A program made the translations under genes and the position numbers. Below, piece after piece: positions 20,297-23,435 of a DNA stretch of 27,676 nt (its first letter is position 1; each line of letters begins with the position of its first letter). Origin of the DNA: an uncultured Candidatus Marinamargulisbacteria bacterium. GTDB lineage: Bacteria > Margulisbacteria > Marinamargulisbacteria > SXXA01 > SICP01. Location of the stretch: assembly GCA_964652635.1 (NCBI GenBank), contig CAZZBY010000001.1:1-27676 (forward strand), read 5' to 3'. The notes under the pieces were generated by a model. That model ran no database searches, had not been told where the DNA came from, and was given only the letters and a program-made list of their open reading frames with translations.

Positions 20297-22090
20297 ATGA
20301 CCATAGCCATTCACAAAATAATTGCACATCAGCTCACAAGTAGCTTGAGAGTTAGAGCTTTCTCTAGAGGAAAAAAAGATCTCCCCAAACCAACCGCCGA
20401 AGCACCTCCTATCCAAGATTTAGAAAAAACACTCGCATCTGCCTTCTGTGCATCTAGAGTAGATCCAATTTTTAAAAAAACAAAGGATAAAGCAGTCCTA
20501 ATCGAAGCCGCAAAAGCATTTTACCAAGCAAACAAAATTACACATCTCACAATAGAAGCGATAGAAACCACAATCACGCTCATGAAAGTCATCAGAGTCG
20601 CCGTAGAAGACTTACTGCCAGATCCCCGAATCCCAGAATCCATGAAACCCTATTTAAATACCGACAATATCATTTATTTTATTTCCATTTTGTATAAGCG
20701 AATGCCACAAGGCTCGTTTAGAGAAAGTCAAACCTCAATTAGACGATACACAAAATTAGTCAATGACATCCAAGCAAAATTAATCGATCACAATCATCCA
20801 AAAGCACTTGAATTTAAACCCAGAAAGGAATTCCTCATTAATTGGTGTCGTATTTTAATCGAAACCACCAGTCACCCACTATTATTAAATGAAAGAGAAA
20901 ATGCAGCTTACATGACAGCAAATAAAGACAAATTAGATCAATTATTTGGGGCTGAAGCCAAATTAGTATTGTTTATTTGTATGGTTGATGACATTGCCGA
21001 CATTCTTCAAGATGAGAAACTATTAAGTTATTTCATCAACATCCCAGATTTAATCAGCCTCCCAGCTGATCAAGTTTCAAATGAAATTAAAAAAATCATG
21101 GTAACCATGAAAAAAGACGGATACGGAGAGTACGCTGAATTTTTTGAATTTGCAGGAGAGATGTGGTCAGAATCAATTTTTGAAATTCATACCATCATGG
21201 ACCATGAACTTGCGGAAGACATCAGATCCAGAGAAACGCTAGAAGCAGCCATTATTACCAACATTAAAAAAGTAATGTTTAGCATGTCACAATCAGTCTC
21301 AATCAATGTCAGACCCGAAACCTTCAAAGGACATTATGATGATGTCGAAAGAGATTTGGCCCCCAATATGCTCATGACCTTCTTTAAAGCAATCGAAAAG
21401 GGACTATTAAAATCAGAAAAAAGAGAAATCGACCCGAAAACAGAAGCCACTCTCGATCGAATATTTGAAATGGGAGAAATTATCGGCCATTCAGGAAACA
21501 ACATTGCAACCTTAATGAGAGAAATTCAAAATGGAGATATTTCCAATACACTCATCCTCATTATCGACGCAAAACTCCGAAGCGACCTAAGTCTATGGGG
21601 AATGTCATTTAATCGCTACCTAGACTCCCTGTTCGCAAGTCAAGCCCACAATATCTCTGAGACCATCATCAGTTTTTTAGAATTAGCCGTCGAATGCTCA
21701 AAATCCAATAAAAAGTTAATGGCACTAGCCACAGAATTTTGTACGGCAAAGAAGGTCGAATTACACGAATTTGCCGACACCCTCTCAGATATCAAAAACG
21801 ATGAAGAAATTCATCAGTTCAAAACAAAGTACCTCCAGCATGACGACGATCAGAGATTTCAAGAAATAATGAAGGAGTTACAGCATAAAAGCATAGTATT
21901 AAAAGCAGTTCAGCTAATTTTAGACGACAAAAAAACCACCCCTCTCCAAACCTACTACGAACGAATCAACACTTATTTTGATAAAATAATGCGAGAGTTT
22001 GATACAATTAGCGTGCCGGGATCAGATCAGTATGTCAAAGGGATATATAATTTATTTGTTTTATACTTACTATTCAAATCAGACATGTAG
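20297..22090 (+). CDS. Uncharacterised class I terpene synthase/isoprenoid synthase-fold protein
   Basis: All-helical character. DDIAD (DDxxD, residues 231-235) and NNIATLMRE (NSE/DTE-like, residues 401-409) followed by GD..N, with spacing consistent with the alpha-domain fold. Confidence 0.6.
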   Translation: MTIAIHKIIAHQLTSSLRVRAFSRGKKDLPKPTAEAPPIQDLEKTLASAFCASRVDPIFKKTKDKAVLIEAAKAFYQANKITHLTIEAIETTITLMKVIRVAVEDLLPDPRIPESMKPYLNTDNIIYFISILYKRMPQGSFRESQTSIRRYTKLVNDIQAKLIDHNHPKALEFKPRKEFLINWCRILIETTSHPLLLNERENAAYMTANKDKLDQLFGAEAKLVLFICMVDDIADILQDEKLLSYFINIPDLISLPADQVSNEIKKIMVTMKKDGYGEYAEFFEFAGEMWSESIFEIHTIMDHELAEDIRSRETLEAAIITNIKKVMFSMSQSVSINVRPETFKGHYDDVERDLAPNMLMTFFKAIEKGLLKSEKREIDPKTEATLDRIFEMGEIIGHSGNNIATLMREIQNGDISNTLILIIDAKLRSDLSLWGMSFNRYLDSLFASQAHNISETIISFLELAVECSKSNKKLMALATEFCTAKKVELHEFADTLSDIKNDEEIHQFKTKYLQHDDDQRFQEIMKELQHKSIVLKAVQLILDDKKTTPLQTYYERINTYFDKIMREFDTISVPGSDQYVKGIYNLFVLYLLFKSDM

Positions 22091-22100
22091 TGGGATTTAA

Positions 22101-23435
22101 ATGAAACAATTTAAAAAAAACAACCTCGTAGAAGCACTTTCTATTACATGCATCATTCTATCTATTCCGTATTTCTTTATTTTTCGCTACTTTCAGCTCT
22201 TTTTTATCGGAGACCTCATTCTTGGATTTTGCGTTGCCTTTTTAATCCCACTATATTTATCCAGAAACAGCTATCCCAAACTCGCTAATTTAGTCTTAGT
22301 CATTGTGGCCACCGGTTTACTGACATTTTATGCCCTCATCCTAGGCAAGGAATCTGGTGCCCAACTTGTCCTATTTTCAACGGTCACAATCCCGATTGCA
22401 CTCTATAAAAAATCACAATTCTGGCAGGTATTTTTAATTACCCTCATCCCAATCTCTGCTGCATATTTTTTAGAAATAGTCAATTATCATTTCTTACTTA
22501 CCCCCATCCAATTATCACCAGAAGTCAAAAAGTTTTTTCATTTTTGCGCCATGTTTACGACGTTTTCCTTTAGCATTTTATCGTCATACCTGTTCTATAA
22601 ATCCAGAAAAAACTATGAAAAAGAAATTTTAAAATCCAATAGTCGACTCACTACTAATATTGCCTGGACCACACAAATCGCCCAAAAGCTTCAACGAGTA
22701 CTCGAAAGTGAAATGTCCAAAGCTCATTCCCTCCAAAAGTCAATTCTTCCAACCACCCCTCAAAAATACGAAGGTCTGGTCATCGATTATGTCTACATAC
22801 CGTCTCGATACATTAGCGGGGACTATTTTGACTTTTTCCCCATCTCCAAAACTCAAATCGGAATGACCATGGTCGACGTCGTTGGAAAGGGTATTGCCAG
22901 CAGTATTGAAGTCTTTAGTCTCCGCACCATAATCCACATCCTCAAAGAACATTGGAAAACCCCCAAAGAACTCATCGAGACCCTCAATCGCATAGCCAGT
23001 ACATCCGATGTGATCAAAAAGTATGTCCCCATGATCTACCTCGTCATCAACAGTGAAAAAAGAACCGTTACCTACATCAACGCCGGCCACGAACCAGGTG
23101 CCATCCTCAGATATCAAAACAATCATTACACCATTGAGCATCTCCATACCACCAATGCCCCCATTCAAACCGGACATTCCAATGAAGTTTACAAAGAAAT
23201 CACAGTAGTTTTAGGAGAAAAAGATCGATTCATCCTCTTTACCAACGGCTGTCTCAATGTTAAAAATGCCAGCGAAATCAGACTGTCTCAAGAAGGGTTT
23301 GACACCATCTTGCTCAGCTTAAGCAACCACCCCCTACGAGATCTCGCCAAAGCAATCAGATCCCATCTCGACCGCTACCGAGGGGCAAAACCGCTAGAAG
23401 ACGATATAACGATAGTAACATTTGGATTTGGGTAA
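22101..23435 (+). CDS. Membrane-sensor PP2C/SpoIIE (RsbU-like) protein
   Basis: About 5-6 TM segments including LGKESGAQ...IP (MASE7-like), coiled linker AHSLQKSILP, SGDYFD, DVVGKG, NAGHEP, TNG, DDITIV. Confidence 0.85.
   Translation: MKQFKKNNLVEALSITCIILSIPYFFIFRYFQLFFIGDLILGFCVAFLIPLYLSRNSYPKLANLVLVIVATGLLTFYALILGKESGAQLVLFSTVTIPIALYKKSQFWQVFLITLIPISAAYFLEIVNYHFLLTPIQLSPEVKKFFHFCAMFTTFSFSILSSYLFYKSRKNYEKEILKSNSRLTTNIAWTTQIAQKLQRVLESEMSKAHSLQKSILPTTPQKYEGLVIDYVYIPSRYISGDYFDFFPISKTQIGMTMVDVVGKGIASSIEVFSLRTIIHILKEHWKTPKELIETLNRIASTSDVIKKYVPMIYLVINSEKRTVTYINAGHEPGAILRYQNNHYTIEHLHTTNAPIQTGHSNEVYKEITVVLGEKDRFILFTNGCLNVKNASEIRLSQEGFDTILLSLSNHPLRDLAKAIRSHLDRYRGAKPLEDDITIVTFGFG

Follow-up and report, generated by a model that had tools for sequence, protein, structure and literature searches.

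A putative terpene synthase gene beside a membrane sensor phosphatase gene: a recurrent two-gene pair and candidate signalling cassette of Marinamargulisbacteria

Why should a gene that carries the metal-binding motifs of terpene cyclases lie immediately upstream of a gene for a membrane sensor? The question is raised by a stretch of 27,676 nucleotides (the window, contig CAZZBY010000001.1 of assembly GCA_964652635.1) from an uncultured Candidatus Marinamargulisbacteria bacterium, in which the two genes, referred to here as P0001 and P0002, follow each other on the plus strand. A first-pass annotation, made from the letters alone, had described them as a candidate module of a signal synthase and its receptor. 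The two genes represent one copy of a conserved two-gene cassette expanded in Marinamargulisbacteria. Our answer, to which we assign a probability of about 0.5, is that the product of the synthase is a lipophilic isoprenoid, for which the intramembrane six-helix protein is the cognate receptor. When the sequence was read again, the open reading frames, the positions of the motifs and the 10-bp gap given in that annotation were found as described, as was the fusion of a multi-transmembrane sensor to a SpoIIE phosphatase (six predicted helices and a match to PF07228).

20297-22090, plus strand: P0001 gene, 597 amino acids, a divergent protein of predicted class I terpene-synthase fold, cytosolic, with no membrane helix predicted
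22091-22100, plus strand: spacer between the two genes, 10 nucleotides, read from the sequence as too short to accommodate a terminator or a promoter
22101-23435, plus strand: P0002 gene, 444 amino acids, a membrane sensor phosphatase with a six-helix MASE7-like domain, a long signalling helix and a PP2C domain

The pair recurs far beyond the window. P0001 itself is rare: when 1.84 billion representative proteins were searched exhaustively with HMMER, 46 relatives were returned, and a word-indexed search of 5.8 billion proteins returned three; the word-indexed searches retrieved only close relatives. The P0001-family loci with intact downstream DNA number 19 and come from 12 further genomes, one ENA contig and the window. 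At all of them the gene that follows, in the same orientation, opens with a membrane domain homologous to that of P0002 (residues 1–215), and the gaps between the two genes are operon-like, being mostly 3–47 nucleotides long. The more distant homologues of P0001 are paired in the same way in nine of ten cases, with the tenth gene divergent from its sensor, and the same pair is also present on a contig from the TARA ocean survey.

The sensor membrane domain is found in 43 of 55 Marinamargulisbacteria genomes, in up to 10 copies per genome. At 14 further sensor loci the gene directly upstream was compared with Pfam, and at 11 of them it scores above the threshold of PF19086 (Terpene_syn_C_2). 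PF19086 itself occurs in 30 of the 146 genomes of the phylum, all of them within the class Marinamargulisbacteria. The sensor domain lies just downstream of it on the same strand in about 48 of 60 places, as counted by eye in a comparison of two genome scans, and two of these 48 belong to synthase-synthase-sensor tandems. In the remaining places, three genes are adjacent to a sensor but divergent from it, and for nine no sensor was found, at least one of these being at the end of a contig. A few sensors are preceded by large open reading frames with sub-threshold or no similarity to synthases. Neither PF20967 (MASE7) nor PF19086 was present above its cut-off in any of 14 control genomes. The genome to which the window belongs (a 1.25-Mb assembly, 65% complete) has three PF19086 genes, each followed by a sensor, as well as four genes of the P0001 type, and its closest relative (1.4 Mb, 91% complete) has seven PF19086 genes, two P0001-type genes and eight sensors. 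Thus, signalling genes do adjoin the homologues in all three sets (19/19, 9/10 and ~48/60), as the first-pass annotation had anticipated; the pair that it singled out does recur as a pair, but many paralogous cassettes accompany it, both in its own genome and across the class. None of the computational outcomes that the annotation had named as refuting it was obtained, and its interpretation is partly supported.

The layout of the cassettes varies, and synthase-synthase-sensor, sensor-synthase-sensor and two full cassettes in a row are all encountered (L045, identical with G001:C9, as well as G004:C5, L028, L055 and L034). Very long synthase-like genes (~920–1160 residues), large regions of which have no family match, are present at L056:1478-4957, L020:1272-4220, L037:2351-5161, L060:2123-5026, L067:4100-7057 and L068:2148-4904; the one at L056 has no sensor, and those at L067 and L068 precede sensors and have no detectable similarity to synthases. 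The most distant match to the sensor profile, P0062, was set aside, having no synthase upstream and probably being matched through its kinase and coiled-coil part only.

A different enzyme stands beside one MASE7-like kinase, from a distant family of the class (L072:3111-6281, G029:C6). The protein encoded upstream of it has 599 residues and joins DUF1295, which resembles membrane reductases and methyltransferases, to a cyclopropane-fatty-acyl-phospholipid synthase (CMAS) domain, and a second CMAS paralogue is located further upstream. This pairing is a single case, since the contigs end just upstream of the two orthologous sensors that were found; it fits a lipid-making enzyme placed beside a lipid receptor.

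The first protein of the pair, P0001, is predicted to have the all-α fold of class I terpene cyclases. Its AlphaFold2 model, calculated from the family alignment, is all-helical (pLDDT 89.8, pTM 0.88), and the list of structures matched to it by Foldseek consists almost entirely of class I terpenoid synthases, with weak E-values of 0.14 or above. The matched part extends over residues ~105–597, and P0001 would therefore consist of a cyclase α-domain to which an N-terminal extension of 100 residues and ~200 inserted residues have been added. Class I cyclases carry both of their metal-binding motifs at the ends of helices, and the two motifs of P0001 are located in the model at the equivalent helix ends.

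20822-20824, plus strand: codon of Arg176, an invariant residue of the family
20987-21001, plus strand: DDIAD, the aspartate-rich first metal-binding motif, residues 231–235, at the C-terminal end of the predicted helix 203–237
21497-21547, plus strand: NNIATLMRE-IQNGDISN, the second metal-binding motif, of the NSE type, and the conserved tail that follows it, residues 401–417, at the end of the predicted helix 380–411

Conservation was counted in an alignment of 43 members of the P0001 family. In the first motif, Asp231 and Asp235 are present in all 43 sequences, Asp232 in 42 and Ala234 in 41. The core of the second motif, NNIATLMRE (residues 401–409, nucleotides 21497-21523), is followed by IQNGDISN, and here Asn401 is kept in 41/43, Thr405 in 42/43, Arg408 in 41/43, Glu409 in 40/43, Asp414 in 41/43 and Asn417 in 36/43 sequences. 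The distance of 170 residues between the two motifs lies within the range of about 140–170 expected of class I enzymes. Arg176, found in 43/43 sequences, is a candidate diphosphate-binding residue, and the further conserved columns include Trp183 and Cys184 (41/43 each), Ser333 (42/43), Asn337 (39/43) and Asn357 (42/43). The two Mg-binding motifs are thus strongly constrained, and the most conserved columns of the family, as judged from the alignment, are those of both motifs and a few others, beyond what chance would give. Both claims that had been made for this protein from its letters, namely that it has a terpenoid-synthase fold and that the two motifs correspond to DDxxD and NSE/DTE, have accordingly held up, the first in the predicted model and the second in the family alignment.

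P0001 has no match in NCBIfam, and four of the 43 family members match terpene synthase families of Pfam below threshold, the best at 1.6e-4 and 6e-4. Searches of the PDB sequences with P0001 and with the family profile returned coiled-coil-like noise, together with matches at E of about 1 to Sat1646 and to cucumene synthase in the NSE region, and a fold search of the ESM Atlas with the model returned only noise (TM-score below 0.3); feature searches of the Atlas yielded leads and nothing firmer. In a BLASTP comparison of P0001 with the synthase P0006, the best local match is the NSE-type motif. The alignment by hhalign of the P0001 family with the canonical cassette synthases superimposes this motif on their NDxxSxxKExxxGxxxN (E 0.0037, probability 8.9%), and the alignment of the family with the single synthase P0006 is not significant. 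In PADLOC, P0001, P0002 and the synthase of L048 did not match any defence system, and P0006 had one weak match, to Csn2 (E 0.0034).

The canonical synthases of the paralogous cassettes look catalytically competent as far as their motifs can tell. Their alignment keeps FxHDDxxD, the sensor arginine (Arg246) within RxxTSAV, NDxxSxxKE and WSxxSxRY with the RY pair Arg373-Tyr374, and their profile matches the solved sesquiterpene cyclases T-muurolol synthase (E 2e-47) and 1-epi-cubenol synthase (E 3e-37). The pair of metal-binding motifs is recognisable in about 33 of 40 cassette synthases. As for the supply of substrate, two polyprenyl diphosphate synthases are present in each of five genomes, that of the window and four relatives, and IspH in four of these five, that of the window included. 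The earlier remark that no other isoprenoid genes accompany the pair is correct for the window, where none was found beyond the pair, but not for the genome, where these genes are located elsewhere.

The second protein, P0002, combines a membrane domain with a phosphatase domain.

22101-22745, plus strand: membrane domain, residues 1–215, with predicted helices 7–30, 34–55, 59–81, 88–101, 107–126 and 140 onward, connected by very short loops
22851-23423, plus strand: SpoIIE/PP2C phosphatase domain, residues 251–441 (PF07228, E 1.9e-29, 103 bits)
23244-23246, plus strand: codon AAC of Asn382, at the position of the aspartate in the T-D-G motif of PP2C phosphatases; the aspartate codon GAC is one base away

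In the model of residues 1–215 (pLDDT 92.1), six membrane helices are present and the sixth continues unbroken to residue 214. P0002 alone matches MASE7 (PF20967) only weakly (E 0.62, 10.2 bits); it is, however, a clear member of the sensor-domain family of the cassettes (226 bits), in which the partner of the L028 synthase (27.2 bits), G000:C14 (29.7 bits) and L042 (26.4 bits) score above the PF20967 cut-off. We have counted the domain of P0002 as MASE7 because these clear homologues pass. Its only clear structural match is the six-helix anchor of the adenylyl cyclase Rv1625c. The likeness to the anchors of class III adenylyl cyclases (Rv1625c/Cya, as well as mammalian AC9 and AC5) includes the continuation of transmembrane helix 6 into the cytosol, although it is a structural one, with an identity of only 10–16%, and the output in the cassettes is a PP2C or a kinase and not a cyclase. 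The anchor of Rv1625c mediates inhibition by C18 mono-unsaturated fatty acids (PMC12505454), and its mammalian counterparts have been reported to be lipid receptors (PMC11606603). The same anchor can be exchanged for CqsS, an isosteric six-helix quorum-sensing receptor whose ligand, the lipophilic molecule CAI-1, is probably bound inside the membrane (PMC4821796).

The phosphatase domain carries the motifs SGDYFD, VDVVGKG and EDDITIV. T-D-G could be located in 13 further PP2Cs of the cassettes, all of which keep its aspartate; P0002 alone has asparagine there and thus lacks the full set of metal-binding aspartates. The substitution could mean that the phosphatase is weakened, that the variant is tolerated or that the assembly contains an error.

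Only two kinds of output occur among the cassette sensors examined, histidine kinase and SpoIIE, with PP2C in about half. In the kinase type, a response regulator with two receiver domains (REC-REC) is immediately adjacent in at least seven loci. The adjacent regulators at L015, L017, L019, L022, L033, L038 and L054 have ~350–375 residues, at least several of them with two receiver domains, and no output domain is recognisable in any of them. In the orthologous PP2C cassette L009, genes for STAS and RsbW-like proteins are found two genes downstream; both are absent from the window, and three STAS genes are present elsewhere in the genome to which it belongs. A STAS-type partner would be the target of the phosphatase of P0002.

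That the two genes share a history is evident when the synthases are marked as P0001-type, intermediate or canonical on a tree of the membrane domains of 40 sensors. The synthase type changes three times on this tree (the minimum is two), compared with a mean of 18.3 changes after shuffling, and none of 200 shuffles gave a number as low. The patristic distances in the synthase and sensor trees are correlated with a Mantel r of 0.62, a value not reached in any of 2000 permutations. The kinase and PP2C outputs, on the other hand, alternate inside well-supported clades; for example, the cassettes of the window and of L009 (PP2C) are sisters to those of L028 and L027 (kinase). The type of synthase and the membrane domain of the sensor have thus diversified in step, whereas histidine kinase and PP2C replace each other as outputs. 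Since linked genes share their history, the congruence of the trees indicates that the cassettes were inherited and duplicated as units, with no exchange of partners and with their outputs swapped.

How might such a cassette work? The cytosolic synthase would ionise a prenyl diphosphate, which IspH and the two polyprenyl synthases could supply. The lipophilic isoprenoid released from it would move into the membrane. There, the cognate six-helix receptor would bind the product inside its helix bundle, and the signal would pass along the continuous sixth transmembrane helix to the PP2C domain, which would act on a phosphorylated partner-switching protein of the STAS type. Either a quorum-like signal between cells or an intracellular read-out of precursor supply would be compatible with this sequence of events. 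A further reading, somewhat less probable than the first, is that terpenes are dedicated signals of Marinamargulisbacteria, each of the up to ~10 cassettes of a genome forming an orthogonal channel with its own cyclase product, its co-evolved receptor and its kinase or phosphatase. A predicted complex of P0001 (residues 36–597) with P0002 (residues 1–215) had an ipSAE of 0.00 in two runs without controls, which is evidence neither way.

Several observations weigh against the proposal that the synthase product is the ligand of the sensor. P0001 has no match in Pfam at E ≤ 1, so that the thresholds of PF19086 and PF03936 are not reached, and the similarity of its family profile to the canonical synthases is local, confined to the surroundings of the NSE motif. 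For the sensor arginine and the C-terminal RY pair, the sequences of the P0001 family offer no identifiable counterparts, and the chemistry of P0001 may therefore differ from that of the canonical enzymes or the protein may only bind a ligand. The conserved residues Arg176, Ser333, Asn337, Asn357, Tyr579 and Lys594 may take the place of the missing ones. Since Asn382 occupies the position of the T-D-G aspartate, the phosphatase of P0002 may be weak. Some synthases of the class stand alone, with no sensor, and at least eight self-made signal channels in a 1.4-Mb genome would be biologically odd. Finally, the congruence of the trees is evidence of stable coupling and not proof of ligand specificity.

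The main rival explanation takes P0001 to be a cytosolic ligand-binding subunit that holds a hydrophobic or diphosphate-containing metabolite in its old active site and controls the sensor by direct contact, with the paralogues constituting a family of receptors. The great divergence of the P0001 family, with its ~200 extra residues and 100-residue N-terminal extension relative to the aligned cyclases, would agree with such a role, as would the lack of recognisable sensor-arginine and RY motifs, the absence of one or both metal motifs from some long or divergent members, the strict gene order and tight coupling, and a set of paralogues that are many, fast-diverging and receptor-like. We nevertheless regard it as unlikely. 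Pseudo-enzymes usually lose catalytic residues of the kind that the canonical cassette synthases keep in full, and these synthases match active cyclases at an E-value of 2e-47. Moreover, the conserved domain of the partner is embedded in the membrane and offers almost no cytosolic surface except for its exit helix; because it lies nearly entirely in the membrane, a membrane-soluble ligand fits better than docking of a protein.

The second rival, in which the synthases are ordinary biosynthetic enzymes (of volatiles, defence compounds or membrane lipids) and the sensor monitors product load or the state of the membrane in order to regulate the pathway, without constituting an independent signalling channel, is served equally well by the adjacency and by the evidence for a membrane sensor. 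It can also draw on the response of Rv1625c to bulk fatty acids (PMC12505454) and on the one sensor that is paired with a membrane-lipid-modifying enzyme resembling cyclopropane-fatty-acid synthase. Against this stands the absence of tailoring, export and precursor genes beside the cassettes in the loci examined, with nine synthase genes in 1.4 Mb and no other genes of a pathway; we know of no terpene cluster that resembles such an arrangement. The co-diversification of sensor and synthase type likewise argues for specific recognition rather than for generic sensing of membrane stress, and feedback control of this kind appears to be less probable again than direct contact. That the two genes are unrelated neighbours, and the motifs fortuitous in a helical protein, might be suspected from the missing Pfam and NCBIfam matches and from Foldseek E-values of at least 0.14, but coincidence is contradicted by the recurrent pairing, the structural match of the fold and the conservation of the motifs, and is extremely improbable.

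Comparison of P0001 with bacterial class I sesquiterpene and diterpene cyclases of family PF19086 (T-muurolol synthase, 9hqm; biformene synthase LrdC, 6oh6; Sat1646, 7e4n; epi-isozizaene synthase), of which the paralogues in the window's genome are clear members, reveals the same arrangement of the active-site elements. In all of them a long helix ends with DDxxD, and a second helix ends with N-x-x-x-(S/T)-x-x-(R/K)-E, to which G/D-x-x-N is appended. P0001, however, has 597 residues compared with ~310–340 in these cyclases, with the N-terminal extension and the inserted residues described above, and at position two of the NSE motif, where the cyclases have aspartate, it has asparagine or a variable residue. 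In addition, unlike these enzymes, it has neither a recognisable sensor arginine or RY pair nor a Pfam match, and the partner of a P0001-type gene is always a membrane sensor and not a P450 or another tailoring gene.

The closest analogues of the cassette as a whole are CqsA/CqsS of Vibrio and LqsA/LqsS of Legionella, in which the gene for the synthase of a lipophilic molecule also adjoins the gene for its sensor. CqsA is a PLP-dependent acyl-CoA transferase, whereas the synthase of the cassettes has the fold of a terpene cyclase and is not a member of that PLP-dependent family. The sensors are similar in architecture, CqsS having six helices of minimal length with short loops and a ligand thought to be bound in the membrane (PMC4821796). 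A histidine kinase is the output in CqsA/CqsS and in many cassettes; the cassettes also use PP2C, and, unlike CqsA/CqsS, they occur up to ~10 times per genome. With LuxI/LuxR, to which the first-pass annotation had likened the pair, the cassette shares no more than a general principle, namely that the genes for signal synthase and receptor are neighbours. Neither family is present here; LuxI synthesises acyl-homoserine lactones, and LuxR is a transcription factor of the cytosol. CqsA/CqsS, with a lipophilic autoinducer synthase beside a six-helix sensor, is the better comparison. RsbU and SpoIIE phosphatases share the SpoIIE domain with P0002, and genes for STAS and RsbW-like proteins lie near the orthologous pair; P0002 differs from them in its MASE7-like six-helix input domain, in the accompanying synthase gene and in the asparagine that replaces the T-D-G aspartate.

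The logic of a synthase encoded beside its receptor is therefore known already from CqsA/CqsS, and what is new is a terpene cyclase in the place of the synthase, a MASE7-like receptor and the massive expansion of paralogues. The first-pass annotation knew of no described system of this form; in searches of the full-text literature, likewise, no account of a sensor linked with a terpene synthase came to light, and neither terpenes nor kinases are mentioned in genome papers on Marinamargulisbacteria. The terpene synthases of bacteria are regarded as enzymes of secondary metabolism, and the roles of most bacterial terpenes are unknown. In this class, whose genomes measure only 1–2.5 Mb, nearly every terpene synthase gene is hard-wired to a membrane sensor. 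If the products are indeed the ligands, terpenes would become endogenous bacterial signals with dedicated receptors and would add a new chemical class to bacterial synthase-receptor signalling. The cassettes would then provide matched pairs of ligand and receptor, and a natural set of ligands, for the six-helix fold of adenylyl cyclases, whose ligands are only now emerging, as well as a toolbox of orthogonal small-molecule sensing modules. They would also open a way to study function in MASE7, a sensor domain for which no signal is known, and in the poorly known phylum Margulisbacteria, which is the sister of Cyanobacteria.

The remaining features of the locus concern the transcription of the pair and its neighbours.

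19801-20220: PTPS gene, the upstream neighbour of the P0001 gene
20221-20296, plus strand: intergenic region of 76 nucleotides between the PTPS gene and the ATG of P0001 at 20297, presumed to hold the promoter and ribosome-binding site of the pair

The P0001 gene ends with the stop codon TAG at 22088-22090, and the ATG of P0002 begins at 22101. A scan of 20221-20296 for the sigma-70 consensus found no site, no terminator-like site was found by scanning the plus strand within or 3′ of the P0001 gene, and the Rfam scan gave no RNA family near the pair. As had been noted before, the pair is located between a pterin cluster and nrdAB: the upstream region comprises a compact mfd, pdxJ, folE, an AhpC/TSA gene, folB and the PTPS gene, and nrdB and nrdA follow downstream on the minus strand. 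The sequencing runs listed as containing the stretch are all of freshwater-metagenome DNA, with no RNA run among them.

Within the pterin/queuosine-type cluster (18336-20220), folE, the AhpC/TSA peroxiredoxin gene and folB are on the minus strand, divergent from the PTPS/QueD-like gene, and the cluster has no evident connection to the cassette. The mfd (TRCF) homologue at 14985-17078 encodes only 697 residues, with UvrB-interaction, CarD/RID, helicase and partial TRCF domains; the usual length of Mfd is ~1100–1200 residues. Two tRNA genes are located on the plus strand at 8769-8841 and 9216-9288 (Rfam RF00005, 70 and 71 bits). An open reading frame of 145 codons on the minus strand (22740-23177) lies wholly within the P0002 gene and is most likely spurious.

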